From: a virus
Lineage: Duplodnaviria > Caudoviricetes
Length of the DNA stretch: 64,000 nt
Strand: one strand, 5' to 3'
Virus record (IMG/VR): IMGVR_UViG_3300014204_000113
Span: 32,001-96,000 of that record
Position 1 is the stretch's first letter, and every line of letters starts with the position of its first letter. The notes below the pieces were generated by a model. The model made no database searches and was not told where the DNA came from. It saw nothing but the letters and a program-made list of their open reading frames with translations. This document shows, one piece after another, positions 31,823 through 55,661 of the stretch. The position numbers and the translations under genes are program-made.

Positions 31823-32202
31823 TGGAAGAATTAATAATCACACAAAAATATCTTCAAGACAATCCAGACCATATCTTTGTTTTTGGGGATAATCTTTTAA
31901 GGAAAGGAAAGGCTGGGGCGGCAAAACTGAGAGACCTTCCTAATTCTTATGGATTCATTACAAAGAAATATCCAAACAATGACATTAAAAGTTTTTACAA
32001 ACCAGAAGAATATAAAACAGTATTTGAAAAAGAATTAGATAAATTGATATTTCAAATTGTGATGCATCAAGACAAGACTTTTCTAATTAGTAAATTAGGC
32101 AGCGGTCTTGCTAATCGTTTTCACATTTGGGAAAAGGTTATCAAATTCGGACTTGTGCATTTAAAACACTATGAAAATGTAAAATTTCTATGGACGGAAT
32201 AA
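31810..32202 (+). CDS. Conserved phage protein (IFVFGDN family, macro-domain-like)
   Basis: IFVFGDN..GKAGAA, GxxTKK, LGSGLA. Confidence 0.55.
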   Translation: MDEIMEELIITQKYLQDNPDHIFVFGDNLLRKGKAGAAKLRDLPNSYGFITKKYPNNDIKSFYKPEEYKTVFEKELDKLIFQIVMHQDKTFLISKLGSGLANRFHIWEKVIKFGLVHLKHYENVKFLWTE

Positions 32203-35919: not shown

Positions 35920-36900
35920 ATGAATAAAACCAACGTTATCAAAGTGTTAGACAGTATTTCACCTATTCTTTCAGAAGATTATGACATTATTCACTTTAAT
36001 CAAGATTCAATTTACGCTGAAAACAACATGATAGGAATTTCTTGCAATCTAGATTTTGGTTTTAAGGCTTCAATTAGAGGGATTGAATTAATAAAACTTC
36101 TTAAAAAGATGTCAGGCGATGAAGTAGAATTTAAACTTACAGATAAAACTTTATCAGTCAAAGGTGGTGGTTTATCAGCCAAGTTTAAGAAATACGACAA
36201 GGAAAAAATGCCGCCAGACTTTACTGAATTGGAATTTAAGGAAATTCCAGATAATTTTATTGAAGCAATAATTGCTTGTTTGCCATCTGTATCAGACAAA
36301 GATATTCAAGGAATTTTAACTGGATTACACATTGATAATGCTTTGATGTATGGTTGTAACAATGTTTCTGTGACTGAATACGAAATACCAGATATGGATG
36401 TAACATTTACTCTTCCAAAACAAACCGCTTCTTTGTTGACCAAATTTAATCCAAAATATTATCATATCACTGATAACAAAGCCATTTTTGCCAATGAAGA
36501 TAAAACTTCATTTCTATGGTCTGTGCTTATGGCTGGTGCTTATCCTGTAGAAAACATGGTAAAGTTATTGTCTAAAGAAGGTGATATTTTTTCTTTGCCA
36601 GAAGAAATAGGCAAAAGGGCAGATATTGTAAGTCTGTTTGCTTATGATGCTCAAGATGGAAGTTCATTTATTGAAGTGGATATACAAGCGGATAAGATTG
36701 TATTGGGCGGTAACAAGTCTTTTGGGAATTTAGAAGATGTAATGGAATATAAATCAGAAGGAAGCGTAAAATTTCATGTGAATTCAAGTGCTTTGGGAAG
36801 GGCATTGACAATAAATAATAAATTTGTTTGCTGTGGAAATTATTTGGTATTTGAGGATGATAAGATTCGACATCTAATTTGTTTGGTTGACCATAGTTGA
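35920..36900 (+). CDS. DNA polymerase III beta-clamp-like protein
   Basis: Size, S......LTG.H, G.YP pattern and context with DnaE and clamp loader. Confidence 0.7.
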   Translation: MNKTNVIKVLDSISPILSEDYDIIHFNQDSIYAENNMIGISCNLDFGFKASIRGIELIKLLKKMSGDEVEFKLTDKTLSVKGGGLSAKFKKYDKEKMPPDFTELEFKEIPDNFIEAIIACLPSVSDKDIQGILTGLHIDNALMYGCNNVSVTEYEIPDMDVTFTLPKQTASLLTKFNPKYYHITDNKAIFANEDKTSFLWSVLMAGAYPVENMVKLLSKEGDIFSLPEEIGKRADIVSLFAYDAQDGSSFIEVDIQADKIVLGGNKSFGNLEDVMEYKSEGSVKFHVNSSALGRALTINNKFVCCGNYLVFEDDKIRHLICLVDHS

Positions 36901-36926
36901 TAATATGGGAATATTTGATAAAATAT

Positions 36927-36994
36927 GGTGAGGTAAGGTAAGGTTTGGTACGGTTAGGTTGGGTGGGGTAAGGTAGGGTGTGGTATGGTAAGGG
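36927..36994 (+). repeat. GGT-NN pentamer array A (13 units), candidate guide RNA
   Basis: NN = GA AA AA TT AC TA TG GG AA AG GT AT AA; invariant GGT. Confidence 0.9.
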
Positions 36995-37020
36995 TGCAAG
37001 TCTAAAGAATTAGACTTGCA
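36995..37020 (+). terminator. Perfect 11-bp hairpin immediately 3' of array A
   Basis: TGCAAGTCTAA-AGAA-TTAGACTTGCA. Confidence 0.6.
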
Positions 37021-37054
37021 CAGTTTCAAAGAATTAAAAAAGGAGAAATAAACA

Positions 37055-37309
37055 ATGTTAATGACACCACAGAATGAAGATTGGAATGAATTTTGCGCTA
37101 TTCTTGAAGGGCCAGAAGGCTGCGATTTTAAGAAAGATGAAAACGACAAAATCGTATGGAAGTGTGATAGTAGTATGGATAGACCGCTTGCCAATAAAAT
37201 TCTCGCTGAATATTTTCCAGAGATAGACATTGAAGGTTCGTTAGAATATTTCGATGAACATGGAGGCCTCTGTGATTGTGAAATTCTGTTTAATGTAGGT
37301 GATGAATAA
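37055..37309 (+). CDS. DUF2695-like hypothetical protein
   Basis: HGGLCDCEILFNV motif. Confidence 0.65.
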   Translation: MLMTPQNEDWNEFCAILEGPEGCDFKKDENDKIVWKCDSSMDRPLANKILAEYFPEIDIEGSLEYFDEHGGLCDCEILFNVGDE

Positions 37310-38771: not shown

Positions 38772-41700
38772 ATGGCCTTTGTCCACCTCCACACCCATAC
38801 AGATCGCAGTTTGCTCGATGGTGCTGCTAAAATTTCAGACTACATTGTTGAAGTTGTTCGACACAATCAAAGTCATTTGGCGATAACAGACCATGGAAAT
38901 TGTGATTGCTTCCTTGAATTTCAGAAAGAGGCTTTGAAACAATCTATAACCCCAATCTTTGGTGTGGAATTCTACATCGTCCCAGACATCACTAAAAAAG
39001 AAAAATACGAAAAGAAATATCATATAACAGTTTTAGTTCAAAATAAGGTTGGGTTTACCAATGTCCTAAAAATGCTCACCATAGCCAATCTAGAAGGTCA
39101 TTATTATAGACCACAAATTGATCCATCTATATTGCTTAAAAATTATGAAGGTCTAGTTTTTATGACTGCTTGTGTGTCATCTTTTATTAATATGGAAGGA
39201 GGAATTGAATTATTATTAGAATTAAATAAAAAAGCACCAACCTATCTTGAATTGATGCCGCACAATTATCCCATCCAAAAAGAAATCAATTTAAAGAAAT
39301 TGGAATTGGGAAAGAAGTATAATATTCAATTTTCAGCAAGTAATGATGCGCACTACGCAAAACCAGAACATGCCCAAGCGCAGGAAATGTTGCTTGCCAT
39401 CCAGAAGAAGGCTAAATGGGATGACCCAAAAAGATGGAAGTTTGATTTTGGAGGTTTATATTTAAAGTCTGAACAAGAAATGGAACAAGCGTTTATAGAA
39501 CAAAATTGTGTTCCTAAAGAAATTTGGCGTCCAGCAATGGACAACACCATGGAAATCGCCAAACTATGCGAAAACTTCAAGATAAGAAAAAGAAAAGTTT
39601 CTTTGCCAAAAGTCTATGGATATGAGCACAGAGATGAAACAGAGTTGATGAGGGAAATTATTGAAAGCGGATTAAAAGAAAGAAAAATAGGAGATTACGA
39701 TACATATAGAAATAGAATAGAAGAAGAATTTGAAATAATTTGTAAATTGAATTTTCAAAGATACTTCCTTATAGTATGGGAATTGATAGATTGGTGTAAG
39801 AAGAATGGGATTGGTGTCGGTCCTTGTCGTGGGTCATCAGGCGGAAGTTTAATCTGTTATTTAATGCATATTACAGATATAGACCCAATAAAATATGGTC
39901 TTATCTTTGCTCGTTTTATTTCTATCGAACGCAACGATCTGCCAGATATTGATGTTGATTACGAAGATATAAAAAGAGAAGAAGTAAAAAAACATTTAAG
40001 AGATTGTTATGGAGAATACAATGTAGCAGGAATATCAACATTTTTAACATTAAAAGGGAGAGGGGCATTACGAGATGTAGCAAGGGTTTTTGATTTACCA
40101 TTAAGAGAAGTTGATTTAGTTGCAAAGGAGATAGAAACAAAATTAGACGGGGATAAACTTTGCGGACATACAATTGAAGAAGCATGTAAAAAATCTGAAA
40201 TTGTCGCTTCATTTAAAAAGAAATATCCAGAAACAGTTCAACTTGCAATAGATTTAGAAGGGCAGACGAAAGCTGTCGGCCAACATGCGGCTGGAGTAGT
40301 TGTTTCTTCTGATGATTTAAGGAAAGGGGAAAGATGTAATCTTTGTATTAGAAGTGGAGAAATTGTAGTTAATTGGGACAAAGAAAATGCAGAACAAATG
40401 GGGTTAATGAAACTTGATGTTCTTGGTTTAACTTCATTGACTATTATTAATTCTTCTAAGAAGTTTATTAAAGAGAATTATGATATTGATATAGAATTAG
40501 ATAAACTTACATTAGATGACAAAGAAATATATGAAGAAATTTCTAAAGGAAATAATGTAGGTTTATTTCAATTGAATTCACATGGTTTAACTGGCTTATG
40601 TAAAGAGATGGGAGTAAAAGAATTTAATGACATCGTTCTTGCAACTGCCATCTTTCGTCCAGGTGTGCTCGGAAGTGGAATGGCAGATGAATATATCAAA
40701 AGAAGGAAAAATAAAAAGGAAATAAAATATATTCATCCAAAGTTAAAAAAATATACAAAAGACACGCTTGGAATTGTTTTATATCAAGAACAAGTAATGT
40801 GGGTAATGTATGAACTTGCTGGCTTACCTTGGTCTATTTGTGATAAAGTAAGAAAAGTAATGGGTAAATCTCAAGGAGACGCAAAGTTTCAAAAATTTAA
40901 ACAACAATTTATTGATGGTTGTAAAAATAATAAGACGTTATCAGAAAAAGAAGCAGATAAAGTTTGGGATACATTAGCTTCATTCTCAAAATATGGATTC
41001 AACTTAAGTCACGCCACTGCTTATTCTATGATAACTTATTATTGTGCCTATCTCAAATATTACTACCCTAAAGAATTTCTCTGCGCTTGTTTAACTTATG
41101 GTGGCGAAGATAAGAAAGCAGAATATGTCAATGAAGCAAGAAGGTTGGGTTTGGAAGTAAGCCTACCAAAAATAGATAAATCACTTGCAGATGTTTGGTA
41201 TCCGAATAAAGACAGTAATATCATCTATGCGCCATTGACTGAAATAAAAGGTGTAGGGAAAACACAAGCAGAAAAGATAATTGAGCAAGGTTCAAATAAG
41301 AAAGTTGGTTTTTTCACTATCATGGATCAATCTGTTGTGCCTACCAATTCTACTGATGAATTATTGAATAAAGTAGGATTTTATAAGAAAACTTCTTTGA
41401 CACAAAAAGAGTTGATGAAAGCTAGACAATATCTTAATTTTAATCCATTGACTGGTATGAATAGATTTAGTAGATTACCAAAAGATTTTGATTATTCAGA
41501 CGATGATATTATTAAATGCAATTTGGAAGGATTTGAAGGTAATCTTATTGAAATAAAGAAATATGGAAAGAAGATAGAATGTGATAAATGCGAGTTGAGG
41601 AGAGAAGCAAAACAGATTGTTTTCCCATCTTTTGGACGCTATAATATAATGGCAATCGGGGAAGCACCCGGATCACGAGAAAATGAAGAAGGAATTGGGT

Positions 41701-42257
41701 TTGTAGGTGATGCAGGAAAAGATATTCTTTGGCCAGAATTGAAGAAGCATAATTTAGTTAGAGACATGTTTCACCTAAGCAACATCTGCAAATGCTTCCC
41801 TGGGAAGAAAATCAAAACGCCAACTAAAAATCATATAAAAATTTGTTCTGAACATATTATAGATGAAATTAATAATTTAAAACCAATAATGATTCTTGCT
41901 TTTGGTAATACTAATGTTAAATTTTTCAAAGAACAAGATGGTGGAATTACCGCTTTGAATGGAACTACTGAATGGTCAGATAAATTCCAATGTTGGATTT
42001 CATTTTGTGTGCATCCAGCATCATGTCTCTATCAACCATCAAATAAAGAACTATTTGAGAAAGGAATAAAGAATTTCGCAGATAAAATAAATATGATTGG
42101 TGGTAATTGGTTAAGGAAAAATAAAGAACAGAAATCCAACAGAAAATGTCCTTATGGTGGTAAATTTGGGATAGATAACAACGAGTATGAGGAATGTGAA
42201 GTATGTAATATTTGGCTTGATTGCACTAAAATTGCTATGAATGATGATTTTAAATGA
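38772..42257 (+). CDS. dnaE: DNA polymerase III alpha subunit with C-terminal family-4 uracil-DNA glycosylase domain
   Basis: PHP (HLHTH, TDHG), RGSSGGS, PDIDVD, KLDVLG, YQEQ, YGFNLSHA; then CxxC, GEAPG, N..KC.P, HP of UDG-4. Confidence 0.93.
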   Translation: MAFVHLHTHTDRSLLDGAAKISDYIVEVVRHNQSHLAITDHGNCDCFLEFQKEALKQSITPIFGVEFYIVPDITKKEKYEKKYHITVLVQNKVGFTNVLKMLTIANLEGHYYRPQIDPSILLKNYEGLVFMTACVSSFINMEGGIELLLELNKKAPTYLELMPHNYPIQKEINLKKLELGKKYNIQFSASNDAHYAKPEHAQAQEMLLAIQKKAKWDDPKRWKFDFGGLYLKSEQEMEQAFIEQNCVPKEIWRPAMDNTMEIAKLCENFKIRKRKVSLPKVYGYEHRDETELMREIIESGLKERKIGDYDTYRNRIEEEFEIICKLNFQRYFLIVWELIDWCKKNGIGVGPCRGSSGGSLICYLMHITDIDPIKYGLIFARFISIERNDLPDIDVDYEDIKREEVKKHLRDCYGEYNVAGISTFLTLKGRGALRDVARVFDLPLREVDLVAKEIETKLDGDKLCGHTIEEACKKSEIVASFKKKYPETVQLAIDLEGQTKAVGQHAAGVVVSSDDLRKGERCNLCIRSGEIVVNWDKENAEQMGLMKLDVLGLTSLTIINSSKKFIKENYDIDIELDKLTLDDKEIYEEISKGNNVGLFQLNSHGLTGLCKEMGVKEFNDIVLATAIFRPGVLGSGMADEYIKRRKNKKEIKYIHPKLKKYTKDTLGIVLYQEQVMWVMYELAGLPWSICDKVRKVMGKSQGDAKFQKFKQQFIDGCKNNKTLSEKEADKVWDTLASFSKYGFNLSHATAYSMITYYCAYLKYYYPKEFLCACLTYGGEDKKAEYVNEARRLGLEVSLPKIDKSLADVWYPNKDSNIIYAPLTEIKGVGKTQAEKIIEQGSNKKVGFFTIMDQSVVPTNSTDELLNKVGFYKKTSLTQKELMKARQYLNFNPLTGMNRFSRLPKDFDYSDDDIIKCNLEGFEGNLIEIKKYGKKIECDKCELRREAKQIVFPSFGRYNIMAIGEAPGSRENEEGIGFVGDAGKDILWPELKKHNLVRDMFHLSNICKCFPGKKIKTPTKNHIKICSEHIIDEINNLKPIMILAFGNTNVKFFKEQDGGITALNGTTEWSDKFQCWISFCVHPASCLYQPSNKELFEKGIKNFADKINMIGGNWLRKNKEQKSNRKCPYGGKFGIDNNEYEECEVCNIWLDCTKIAMNDDFK

Positions 42258-49402: not shown

Positions 49403-49494
49403 AAAGGTAGTCAAAATTTCCATTTCCCATCCTCCTAAACCCCTAACCCTGTCCCATCTGAAAATGGTGGGGCAGGAACTTTATGGAGTTTATA

Positions 49495-50586
49495 ATGCCA
49501 CCAAGAAAGAAAACAGATGATGTTGTAAATCAAATCAAAGAAGTTGCAAATAGTCCTGTGAGAAAAGATGATGAACGAGTTGAGTTTTTGAACAGTGGTT
49601 CAACTTTATTAAATTTAGCTGCTTCACAAAAAGGTAAAGATGGTGGATGGGCGCGAGGGAGAGTAATTAATTTGGTTGGTGATTCTAGTTCTGGGAAAAG
49701 CGCCCTTGCATTAGAAGTTTGTGCTCAAAGTCTTTACAATATTAAAAATATAGAATCTAAAATATATCCAAAACCTCAAAAGGTTTCAATAGTTTACAAC
49801 AATGTTGAAGGCGTAATGGATTTTCCAATTTCACAAATGTTCGGTGAGAAATTTAATAATGAAATCGAATGGATACAAACACCAACTTGTGAAGGTTTTG
49901 GTAAAGATTATCAACAAAGAGTCCGTAATTTAAAATCTGGAGAATTTCTTTTATATATTTTAGATTCAATTGATGCTTTAACAACAGAAGCTTCTTCAGA
50001 AAGAATGGATCAACTTTTAACCGATAAAAAAGTTGGTGGTTCTTATGGTTTAGAAAAACCAAAATTTTTTTCAAGTGAATTTTTCAATCATTTATGTGGA
50101 ATAATGAAAGGAAAAGATTCAACACTAGTTTGTATCAGTCAAGTTAGACAAAATATTGGCATAATGTTTGGGGAAAAACTTACAAGAACTGGTGGGAAAG
50201 CTCTAGATTTTTATGCACATCAAGTTTGTTGGTTGGCAACCATTGAAAAAATGAAGAAAACTTTTCGTAATCAAGATAGAATTTATGGAGTAAAAATAAG
50301 AGCACGTTTTAAAAAAAATAAAACAGCAATACCTTATAGAGAATGTGATTTTAGTATTATTTTCAATTTTGGAATTGATGATGTCAATTCAATGTTAGAT
50401 TTTTGTTTTGGTCCAAAAAGCAAGGAAATGACTTGGAATGACCAAGAAATGAAACGAGGAGATTTAGTAGAATTAATTGACAACTCAAAGGAGGATTATT
50501 TACTGCTACAAGAACTGACTGAAAAAATTTGGCATGAAATAGAGGAGGGAATAAAACCACGAAGAAAAAACAGGTTTATTGATTGA
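49495..50586 (+). CDS. recA: RecA/UvsX-like recombinase
   Basis: GDSSSGKS, LDSIDAL, ISQVRQNIG, TGGKALDFYA, KNK. Confidence 0.9.
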   Translation: MPPRKKTDDVVNQIKEVANSPVRKDDERVEFLNSGSTLLNLAASQKGKDGGWARGRVINLVGDSSSGKSALALEVCAQSLYNIKNIESKIYPKPQKVSIVYNNVEGVMDFPISQMFGEKFNNEIEWIQTPTCEGFGKDYQQRVRNLKSGEFLLYILDSIDALTTEASSERMDQLLTDKKVGGSYGLEKPKFFSSEFFNHLCGIMKGKDSTLVCISQVRQNIGIMFGEKLTRTGGKALDFYAHQVCWLATIEKMKKTFRNQDRIYGVKIRARFKKNKTAIPYRECDFSIIFNFGIDDVNSMLDFCFGPKSKEMTWNDQEMKRGDLVELIDNSKEDYLLLQELTEKIWHEIEEGIKPRRKNRFID

Positions 50587-50709
50587 GGTTAGGTTTGGTT
50601 AGGTGGGGTCCGGTAAGGTGAGGTAAGGTGAGGTGTGATGAGGTTGGGTAAGGTGGGGTGAGGTAAGGTATGGTAAGGTACGGTATGGTAGGCTAGGGTG
50701 AGGTATGGA
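50587..50709 (+). repeat. GGT-NN pentamer array B (24 units), candidate guide RNA
   Basis: Starts at the base after recA TGA; NN = TA TT TA GG CC AA GA AA GA GT GA TG AA GG GA AA AT AA AC AT AG AG GA AT. Confidence 0.92.
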
Positions 50710-50711
50710 TT

Positions 50712-51026
50712 TTGCGACTTAAATTTGAAAGTTGTTTTGAAACTCAATTTCGGGAAGAACTTGAAAGTCGTGGATTCATAAAGAATAAAGATTTCATACA
50801 AGAATTTCCAGTTCGGTATCCAACCCGAATAATCGACTTTGTATTTTATGACAAAAAGGTTGGTGTTGAATTGGATGGTCCACATCACATTGGTAAGAAA
50901 AAGTATGTTGACAAGTGGAAAGATGAAAAAGCAATAAAACAAGGATGGGTTATTGTAAGATTTGATTTGGAGCAAATGAAAGATATCAAGAATTGTGTTG
51001 ATATGGCTTTAAGTTTGATTAAATGA
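50712..51026 (+). CDS. DUF559/Vsr-like endonuclease
   Basis: QEFPV..IIDF..VELDGPHH..D..KD..GW.IVRF. Confidence 0.8.
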   Translation: MRLKFESCFETQFREELESRGFIKNKDFIQEFPVRYPTRIIDFVFYDKKVGVELDGPHHIGKKKYVDKWKDEKAIKQGWVIVRFDLEQMKDIKNCVDMALSLIK

Positions 51027-51122: not shown

Positions 51123-51653
51123 ATGGAGAAACAAATCATGGAGTTGACAAGAATTAAAGTAACAGTTCATGGAACAAAACCTCTTTTGGTGCATCGTTTT
51201 GCGGAAGAAGAAAGCGGCAAATCCAGGAAGAAAGCAACTGAGGATTCAAAAACGCAGGCAGAAAAGGCTCTTTACACAAATGCAGATGGACCTTATGCAC
51301 CATCTTCTTGGTTTGAAGGAGCTATGGTTAAAGCCGGTGTAAATTTCTCGTTGCGCGGCAAGAAAACTTACAAAGATTTGGTTAAAAGTGCGGTTGTGGT
51401 GACACCAGAAGAAATTCCTCTACGCAACGAATGGGAAGTAGATTCTCGTCCTGTTGTGATTAGCGGCAGGATTATGCGCCATCGTCCTAAATTTAAAGAA
51501 TGGTCGGCAGAATTCACAGTTGAAATTACAGACCCGCAATTACCAGCAAATGTCTTGCAAGACATTTTGAAAGATGCAGGACAATATTGTGGCGTGGGTG
51601 ACTACAGACCCAAGTTTGGTACTTTTGAAATTGTTGAATTTAAAGAAATTTAA
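51123..51653 (+). CDS. Small RAMP/Cas7-like protein 1 associated with GGT-NN arrays
   Basis: IKVTVHGTKPLLVH (beta1), PSSWFEGAM, R.RP, C-terminal glycine loop GVGDYRPKFGTF; paralogue of 55107-55661. Confidence 0.7.
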   Translation: MEKQIMELTRIKVTVHGTKPLLVHRFAEEESGKSRKKATEDSKTQAEKALYTNADGPYAPSSWFEGAMVKAGVNFSLRGKKTYKDLVKSAVVVTPEEIPLRNEWEVDSRPVVISGRIMRHRPKFKEWSAEFTVEITDPQLPANVLQDILKDAGQYCGVGDYRPKFGTFEIVEFKEI

Positions 51654-55106: not shown

Positions 55107-55661
55107 ATGAACTTGGTACTGTGTAAATACAAAATTACTGGCTTATTTCCACTTTTAACCCACAGTCCTGCTGGAATGAGGCAAGCGGCCAATGCGCCAA
55201 AAGTCAAGAAGATTCCATCGCCAGAAGATGAAGCACAAGCTGGTTTGTATATTGATAATGATGGAAATTATTGCATCCCGTCTATTGCTTTTCGTTCAGC
55301 TTTATTGAATGGATTGAAAGGGAAAAAGATTGGCAAGGTGGGTGCAATTTCAGTGTTTCAAGCTGCGGTTTTTAACGTGGACGAATTGAGTCCATTAGTT
55401 GACCCTGAAACTGGGCGAGCATTAAGGGAATATACGATCGACACTCGTAGAGCTATCGTGCAAAGACAAGGAATTTTAAGAAACCGTCCAAGATTTGAAA
55501 AATGGGGATGTAATGTTTTTCTTCAAATCGACTTGGAAATAACCACACCTGAGCAAGTAGAAGAAGCATTGAATACGGCTGGTCAAATCATTGGCGTGGG
55601 TGATTTCCGTATTGAAAAGAGAGGAATGTTCGGTAAGTTTCAAGCCGAATTGGTTGAATAA
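55107..55661 (+). CDS. Small RAMP/Cas7-like protein 2 associated with GGC-NN arrays
   Basis: KITGLFPLLTH, IPSIAFRSAL, RNRPRF, glycine loop GVGDFRIEKRGMFGKF. Confidence 0.7.
   Translation: MNLVLCKYKITGLFPLLTHSPAGMRQAANAPKVKKIPSPEDEAQAGLYIDNDGNYCIPSIAFRSALLNGLKGKKIGKVGAISVFQAAVFNVDELSPLVDPETGRALREYTIDTRRAIVQRQGILRNRPRFEKWGCNVFLQIDLEITTPEQVEEALNTAGQIIGVGDFRIEKRGMFGKFQAELVE

Follow-up and report, generated by a model that had tools for sequence, protein, structure and literature searches.

The stretch of DNA considered here, referred to throughout as the window, consists of 64,000 nucleotides (nt) from a virus of the Caudoviricetes (IMG/VR record IMGVR_UViG_3300014204_000113, positions 32,001 to 96,000). 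It belongs to a genome of 187,988 bp, G000 (33% G+C, direct terminal repeats), of a phage that is known only from metagenomes. Within the window is found a replication module, i.e., genes for a sliding clamp (35920-36900), for a DNA polymerase III (Pol III) alpha subunit fused to a uracil-DNA glycosylase (UDG) domain (38772-42257), and for a UvsX/RecA-like recombinase (49483-50586). A short array of pentamers, here termed array A, comes after the stop codon of the clamp gene (36898-36900) and before the start of a DUF2695 gene at 37055. This array is read below as specifying a guide RNA, that is, a vrRNA of the VIPR systems, and probably one directed against the clamp allele of related phages rather than against the allele that it adjoins. 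Features at the locus are as follows, where G001 is a related, 189,632-bp phage whose clamp is 93% identical, and L002 is a contig carrying another close clamp allele.

35920-36900, plus strand: sliding clamp gene (DNA polymerase processivity factor), 326 amino acids, the resident allele, mismatched by the guide (phrog_947, E 9e-22; JGI gives homologues the name DNA pol III beta clamp).
36811-36839, plus strand: own-allele counterpart of the probable target site, codons I-N-N-K-F-V-C-C-G-N; 16/20 to the 10-unit guide, units 2, 6, and 7 of which are the mismatched ones.
36865-36899, plus strand: last 11 codons plus stop of the resident clamp gene, matched 21/24 by the G001 array found at the same intergenic position.
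36897-36924, plus strand: weakly evidenced sigma-70-like promoter match (10/12, extended -10 TG), which overlaps the stop codon of the clamp gene.
36925-36971, plus strand: putative vrRNA guide part, 10 variable dinucleotides (NN) separated by GGT, sharing the sense of the clamp gene's coding strand; a foreign clamp allele is matched 20/20.
36972-36993, plus strand: four 3'-terminal units (NN = AG, GT, AT, AA) plus GG, purine-rich and without C, matching neither allele.
36994-37021, plus strand: 3' tail, a perfect 12-bp hairpin with a 4-nt loop, then CAGTTTC; kept in G001.
37055-37309, plus strand: DUF2695 gene, which does not belong to the system; in L002 it follows directly after the clamp gene with no array between.

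Array A consists of 13 consecutive, perfect GGT-NN pentamers (36927-36991), in strict 5-nt register and with zero degenerate units, and directly after these is a GGG (36992-36994). With units defined instead as YNNGG, which is the published definition, one extra guide dinucleotide, AT (36925-36926), precedes the first GGT, for 14 NN in total. An earlier, sequence-only reading of this DNA gave the 13 units, their decoded dinucleotides, and their coordinates correctly. It was right as well both about the distance of 14 kb to the nearest RAMP-like gene, which starts at 51123 and thus 14.1 kb off, and about an 11-bp perfect hairpin right after the array (36995-37020), this becoming 12 bp if the closing G36994-C37021 pair is included. 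The array is located in the 3' untranslated region (UTR) of the clamp gene, with the next start codon 34 nt beyond the hairpin. In other arrays, as considered below, the distance from the upstream stop codon to the array start is 0-30 nt. No promoter motif common to the arrays was found, and array A may alternatively be cut from the clamp mRNA 3' UTR rather than be expressed from its own promoter. No Rfam family came above threshold.

VIPR, which is Vipr protein plus vrRNA, has been described in three preprints (10.64898/2026.04.26.720920, 10.64898/2026.04.26.720927, and 10.64898/2026.10.15.759431). Vipr is a minimal RAMP protein that polymerises on a vrRNA of 9-16 YNNGG units, hiding the GGY and presenting the NN, with the NN then pairing with double-stranded DNA such that every third target base is skipped, i.e., a 1-nt-skip rule (10.64898/2026.04.26.720920). 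The vrRNA tract ends in a structured 3' tail, and the natural targets are competing mobile elements, those known being satellites, prophage regulators, and other VIPR loci, as recognized by an NN match of at least 80%. In structures of the system of Escherichia phage SUSP1, all 12 units pair and assembly begins at the 3' end; two G's and the pyrimidine are held in Vipr by a G-loop Asp/Arg and a thumb Arg. Published VIPR type II acts by silencing. Taken as marks of a VIPR system are, in addition, a vrRNA of approximately 100 nt that co-purifies with Vipr and an accessory (vap) gene beside vipr. So-called solo vrRNAs, which redirect or titrate Vipr, have been described in satellites and in VIPR-null phages (10.64898/2026.10.15.759431).

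By phrog_4652, G000 encodes three Vipr paralogues, starting at 51123 and 55107 within the window plus a third, Vipr 3, outside of it (G000:126572-127141). The relevant features of the window are these:

50712-51026, plus strand: gene of DUF559/Vsr-like endonuclease fold, between two GGT arrays and beside vipr 1; candidate accessory (vap) effector (PF04480, E 4.5e-8).
51123-51653, plus strand: Vipr 1, 176 amino acids, with a GGT array upstream; candidate user of array A (PDB 36pp_D, SUSP1 Vipr, E 1.9e-14; phrog_4652).
55107-55661, plus strand: Vipr 2, 184 amino acids, with GGC arrays on both flanks (phrog_4652; G-loop Cys replaced by Ile).

Vipr 1 aligns to 36pp_D over residues 32-170, with the thumb Arg as well as the D and R of the G-loop conserved (GDYR against GDWR). 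Array A, for its part, fits the definition of a 9-16-unit vrRNA, with its fixed GGY and its 14 variable NN. Since Vipr 1 matches the solved SUSP1 Vipr, and given this repeat architecture and a structured tail, array A is, as judged from sequence, a vrRNA of a VIPR system. It may be asked whether such an array could be something other than a guide, that is, a series of sites for a TRAP-like ring or filament regulator, G-quadruplex-prone DNA, or a Shine-Dalgarno-like ribosome standby site. Such elements would be in keeping with the recurrence of GG at 5-nt intervals, with AAGGT/GAGGT motifs, and with a length that hardly varies. These nevertheless predict no variable NN which spell a homologous gene in frame, and homology to the protein of a solved guide-RNA filament explains the GGT periodicity directly. 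Because of the homology to Vipr, and of a foreign match that is in frame and is described below, these candidates were dropped, being considered here to be exceedingly improbable.

The sequence-only reading had proposed a stand-alone guide with a gapped code, two bases in three being read, which the RAMP-like protein encoded at 51123 would use in trans. Guide, code, and use in trans would all agree with published VIPR and with the Vipr homologue. The user, though, need not be Vipr 1 because there exists a second GGT-compatible paralogue, Vipr 3, which keeps the Cys and which has, at a distance of 1 kb, an array whose tail is of this same hairpin type. Vipr 2, by contrast, is unlikely to use the GGT array A, as GGC arrays flank its gene and as it has Ile in its pyrimidine pocket, leaving Vipr 1 and Vipr 3 as candidate users. 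At that G-loop pyrimidine pocket, it is Ile that is seen in the GGC-associated Vipr 2 versus Cys in the GGT-associated Vipr paralogues and in SUSP1 Vipr, and a C-versus-T preference may have its basis in this Ile/Cys swap. As to the neighbour of vipr 1, DUF559 is not among the vap families named in the text of the VIPR paper.

The tail hairpin of array A has a folding energy of -17.8 kcal/mol (z of -6.1 versus shuffles). In G001 its pairing is kept, with one C-G to U-A double, i.e., compensatory, change and one U-A to U-G change relative to the window. Dispersed arrays of both genomes end with GG and then a perfect stem of 8-16 bp, usually with a short T-run after, the stems being unrelated in sequence between arrays. 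The arrays that flank vipr 1 and vipr 2 end in GGATTT or GGGTTT and are stemless. The array A hairpin fails intrinsic-terminator criteria, and no canonical intrinsic terminator was found. It likely is a 3' cap or weak terminator of the vrRNA and, by analogy, can be read as a cap that is the counterpart of the SUSP1 pseudoknot. Searching for further arrays with this tail gave, among viral contigs, only G001 again; among metagenome contigs, two others found alongside G001 (L022 and L023) were set aside as unrelated, GGGTT-repeat contigs, that is, as chance matches.

What does array A spell? The sequence-only reading had noted a similarity to the adjacent clamp gene, and its figures are exact: 16/26 nt, with 6/13 dinucleotides identical, for the 13 NN versus 36814-36851. 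That similarity is not above chance, however, as 107 sites reach at least 16/26 in the 64-kb window (both strands) and as shuffled guides reach 19-20/26 in a 190-kb genome; the significance of the own-clamp match vanishes, that is, upon shuffling. The same reading's further suggestion, that a foreign clamp allele is the target, is borne out at the very codons to which it pointed, as seen upon pattern searching against clamp homologues. G001 is the only relative that an IMG/VR scan using the clamp protein gave, with three further alleles coming from the protein database (contigs L002, L003, and L004/L005). The protein search gave only five close clamp alleles plus two distant clusters, which is a small allele sample. 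With 1-nt-skip reading, the first nine NN match 18/18 on the clamp alleles of G001/L001, L002, and L003, as do 20/20 of the positions of the first 10 NN, i.e., including the dinucleotide before the first GGT. The codons involved read D-N-K-F-T-Y-C-G-N in G001, L002, and L003 versus N-N-K-F-V-C-C-G-N in the window. The matching positions follow the reading frame of the clamp gene, codon position 3 being the one that is skipped, and the three foreign alleles differ mutually at a skipped wobble base, with all of them still 20/20.

The nine-unit exact pattern occurs once in the 190-kb G001 genome, which is at the clamp site. None of 2000 base-shuffled guides reach 20/20, and none of 2000 base-shuffled or unit-permuted nine-unit guides reach 18/18. 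A longest-run statistic which employs all 13 units, untrimmed, gives P = 1/500. Own and foreign alleles differ at four read positions in the guide part, and at these the array agrees with the foreign allele in 4/4 and with the own allele in 0/4. Against the 10-unit guide the own allele thus scores 16/20, a score reached by four sites in the phage's own genome, and L004 scores 18/20. The best full-length match in the own 188-kb genome is 19/26 (73%), which is below the 80% self-target level. In the window no site is found within 3 mismatches of the 13 NN, and an exact IMG/VR search using all 13 NN gave no match. As the guide is of the same sense as the mRNA, it therefore cannot pair with that mRNA, and it must be the template strand of the DNA that is targeted, which is also how published VIPR works.

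From a different perspective, array A might serve the regulation of the phage's own genes, either by partial pairing (16/20) with the 3' end of its own clamp gene, tuning the clamp-DUF2695-polymerase row, or simply as a 3' UTR or terminator element. Its location in the clamp 3' UTR, 34 nt before a start codon, would suit such a role, as would a hairpin that could terminate or stabilise a transcript, and one G001 array indeed matches its own neighbour at 18/18. The own-site score of array A is nonetheless an ordinary one, as just described, a canonical intrinsic terminator is not in evidence, and L002, L003, and L004 keep the same gene row with no array at the clamp locus, implying that the element is dispensable for expression. 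Own-gene regulation is for these reasons regarded as quite improbable.

The match with the foreign allele extends across the first 10 NN only, that is, the proposal of a foreign target holds for these with the last four units falling outside of it. Those last four NN (AG, GT, AT, AA) match neither clamp allele, nor was a target for them found in the sequences searched. Array A is not alone in this. The window has five further arrays like it, with a fixed triplet of GGT or GGC, for a G000 total of twelve, and G001 carries nine GGT arrays. Across these 21 arrays, the last three to four NN are purine-rich with almost no C. A 24-unit array behind recA (window 50587-50706), when scored on recA from two further phage contigs of IMG/VR (L026/L027), matches 38/40 in its first 20 units versus 1/8 in its last four. 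A G001 array at 1116 similarly matches 24/24 and then 2/8 in its last four units, and in the fourth array examined only the last two units are unmatched. By these sequence comparisons, the last four units probably are scaffold rather than guide, and their lack of match would be a class feature rather than decay.

The sequence-only reading had suggested as well that guides are locus-linked, and so it appears, with 7-8 of the 21 arrays having their genome-wide best local match in the adjoining gene or in its orthologue in the other phage. The chance of a best match that close is about once per several hundred trials. All of these matches are in frame with a long open frame (one of them short) and of the same sense as the gene. 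The best match of the recA array in G001, for example, is the recA 3' end. The dinucleotide before the first GGY, furthermore, matches the target in 5/5 arrays checked. With matched guides all being same-sense and gene-adjacent, there may exist some route by which new guides are made from neighbouring coding sequence.

At the same intergenic site in G001 there is an array with homologous leader and tail, with GGT and flanks kept, but with other NN as well as three more units. The first 12 NN of this array correspond to the end of the clamp gene, that being its last 11 codons and stop, scoring 21/24 on the window allele, 22/24 on that of L003, and 21/24 on that of L004, versus 18/24 on G001's own clamp and 17/24 on the like-typed L002. 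The clamp end of the window is both the best full-length and the best local match of the G001 array in the entire G000 genome. The two phages, that is, carry reciprocal arrays, each fitting the other's clamp allele better than it fits its own. L003 would, from its sequence, be sensitive to both guides. At the 3' end of the L003 clamp gene (L003:1700-2040 against window 36780-36915) the two allele types are combined in a fine-scale mosaic, and L003 shares with the window the first 13 nt after the stop codon, followed by a 78-amino-acid open reading frame in place of the array.

Between the window and G001 clamps, amino-acid differences number 15/41 over the last 41 codons (36775-36897; 37%) versus 8/285 before these (2.8%; Fisher P 6e-10). 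Nonsynonymous divergence (dN) is correspondingly 0.34 in those last 41 codons versus 0.017 elsewhere. The clamp C-terminus is not simply unconstrained, since between the same-type alleles of G001 and L002 there is no such rise (dN of 0.024 against 0.031). Over the last 41 codons synonymous divergence (dS), too, is higher or saturated, and recombinational import of diverged segments therefore is an alternative or additional cause. The concentration of divergence in targeted codons suggests, so far as sequences can, that this site is under pressure.

G001 lacks counterparts of the window phage's Vipr proteins, in that tblastn of Vipr found none there and all three G000 Vipr genes are missing from the syntenic sites. 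The idea that G001 is VIPR-null was dropped, however, as a profile search found one divergent Vipr-like gene. This is a very divergent gene inserted upstream of recA (L018; G001:C1:154965-155651). Following it, within approximately 450 nt downstream, is a G-rich stretch in which ATGGCAGG-like words recur without forming a strict 5-nt array.

Array A could instead be a vrRNA that lacks a present target, with its likeness to clamp genes a relic of its origin (e.g., as a copy of its neighbour) and its function that of a decoy or sponge for a rival's Vipr or indeed the phage's own. Solo vrRNAs that redirect or titrate Vipr are known from satellites and VIPR-null phages (10.64898/2026.10.15.759431), G001 is without the window phage's three Vipr genes yet has kept its nine GGT arrays, and the full-length match of array A to the foreign allele is just 79%. 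A copy of a resident gene, on the other hand, should resemble the resident allele, and it is with the foreign allele that the array agrees at all four distinguishing positions. The foreign match is in addition perfect over 20 positions, and amino-acid divergence is focused on the targeted codons. A relic or decoy is, on these grounds, unlikely.

Against the interpretation of array A as a guide aimed at a foreign clamp allele there are several points to be weighed. All 14 NN together match the foreign allele at 22/28 (79%), which is just below the 80% criterion of the VIPR papers. Trimming to 10 units was done post hoc, though the same pattern in other arrays backs it. The own allele is still matched at 16/20. 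An unpaired 3' block departs from what is seen with SUSP1, where the 12 units all pair and where assembly starts from the 3' end. One G001 array (L012; 115703-115762) matches its own neighbour gene (G001:115587-115621) at 18/18, and does so with its last nine units, including the terminal ones; the patterns of self-avoidance and of a terminal scaffold thus are contradicted by L012 and are not universal. Lastly, the clamp is a diffusible protein and the alleles are 93% identical, such that silencing alone would be complemented in a mixed infection. Even with these taken into account, the best explanation, and one held with fair assurance, is that array A is a solo vrRNA guide which is aimed at the foreign, DNKFTYCGN clamp allele and which spares its own.

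How such a guide might operate can be outlined. Array A would be transcribed with, or just behind, the clamp gene, and Vipr protomers from elsewhere in the genome (paralogue 1 or 3) would coat the resulting RNA, one per GGT. Each protomer would hide a GGT and present the next two bases, with the 3' hairpin capping the filament and the last four units acting as scaffold. The ten presented NN would then pair with the template strand of the DNKFTYCGN-type clamp gene of putative co-infecting relatives, skipping wobble bases, and the own allele, by differing at 4/20 read positions, would be spared. Because a diffusible clamp would complement silencing, any benefit needs a cis-acting effect on the rival's DNA. 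Binding accordingly is proposed to act in cis, either as a transcription or replication roadblock or via a recruited nuclease such as the DUF559 protein; a stable R-loop filament, for instance, could block replication or instead the transcription of downstream polymerase genes. A guide found beside a resistant allele would keep the two together in recombination, i.e., there would be no recombinants possessing guide plus sensitive allele. Were rival DNA cut, then repair could copy allele and guide together into the rival, as with the homing endonucleases of T4-like phages.

Relative to VIPR type II, as known from Escherichia phage SUSP1 and a Pseudomonas fulva prophage, likenesses include a Vipr that is small and RAMP-like and that shares the residues of G-loop and thumb, GGY-NN pentamers, and 1-nt-skip reading which is aligned to codon wobble. 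Rival mobile elements as targets (probable ones here), an absence of cas1/cas2 or of a CRISPR array, and no high-scoring self target are shared as well. Differences are that the tail of array A is a plain 12-bp hairpin, varying between arrays, rather than a conserved pseudoknot; that its four tail-proximal units would be unpaired with the target; and that arrays here are dispersed over a genome of ~188 kb rather than flanking vipr. There are also here three Vipr paralogues, arrays that are GGT or GGC, and a DUF559 nuclease-fold neighbour of vipr, with the probable target being a core replication gene allele of a close relative.

The solo vrRNAs of F5 satellites and of VIPR-null, SUSP1-like phages (10.64898/2026.10.15.759431) resemble array A in being located far from, or without, vipr and used in trans, as array A would be, in having a self-match below the competitor match, and in having a wobble-aligned guide. 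They differ in being found at a former vipr locus and in being aimed at vipr genes, vrRNAs, satellites, and host repeats, whereas array A adjoins a resident homologue of its probable target, within a VIPR-positive genome, and has a counter-guide in a relative at the same spot. With the crRNA-Cas7 filaments of class 1 CRISPR there is in common a RAMP backbone, one protomer per fixed guide interval, and the flipping of bases from the guide-target duplex by a thumb; here, though, the period is 5 nt, three bases are hidden with two read, the target is gapped, and repeats and spacers, adaptation genes, and a PAM are all lacking.

VIPR itself, solo vrRNAs, wobble alignment, and a lower self-match are all already published. 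In the VIPR literature consulted, no guides were found beside the resident allele of their target and no reciprocal guides at one locus in related phages, nor was there mention of targets that are alleles of clamp or recA, of tail-proximal units that do not pair, or of tails that are hairpins free in sequence.

The free-standing homing endonucleases of T4-like phages (seg, mob) are associated with intronless homing and with marker exclusion. By analogy, array A too would be a selfish determinant that is found between conserved genes and that attacks a neighbouring gene in co-infecting relatives, with the carrier's allele resistant by way of a few substitutions and with linkage between attacker and allele favouring their joint spread. 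Specificity here, however, would be supplied by an RNA guide as read by a protein which is encoded elsewhere, and cleavage is only hypothetical. Indirect signs of something homing-like are the mosaic clamp 3' end of L003 and the array's being present or absent among close relatives. A dispersed vrRNA plus a resistant allele could make up an RNA-guided poison-antidote or homing cassette, with the guide bringing Vipr, and perhaps the DUF559 nuclease, to a co-infecting relative's sensitive allele and with repair copying both, so driving their spread and, reciprocally, an arms race, which would be visible as counter-guides and as the burst of amino-acid change in the clamp's last 41 codons. This further step is a tentative one, more doubtful than not.

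Among neighbouring genes, the Pol III alpha gene (38772-42257) encodes PHP, polymerase, and finger domains followed by a C-terminal domain of the uracil-DNA glycosylase superfamily (residues 958-1097), which is an unusual fusion.

VIPR, described only in 2026, thus would be aimed here at an essential replication gene allele of a close relative, with a counter-guide present at the same position in that relative, making this locus a concrete case for allele-specific exclusion between related phages. A scaffold role for tail-proximal units would matter for target prediction, as a full-length 80% rule would miss the clamp target. The locus raises too the question of how guides arise beside the gene that they resemble. 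Finally, it suggests why a wobble-blind code should be useful, since escape from such a code costs amino-acid changes, and these are what is seen in the clamp.
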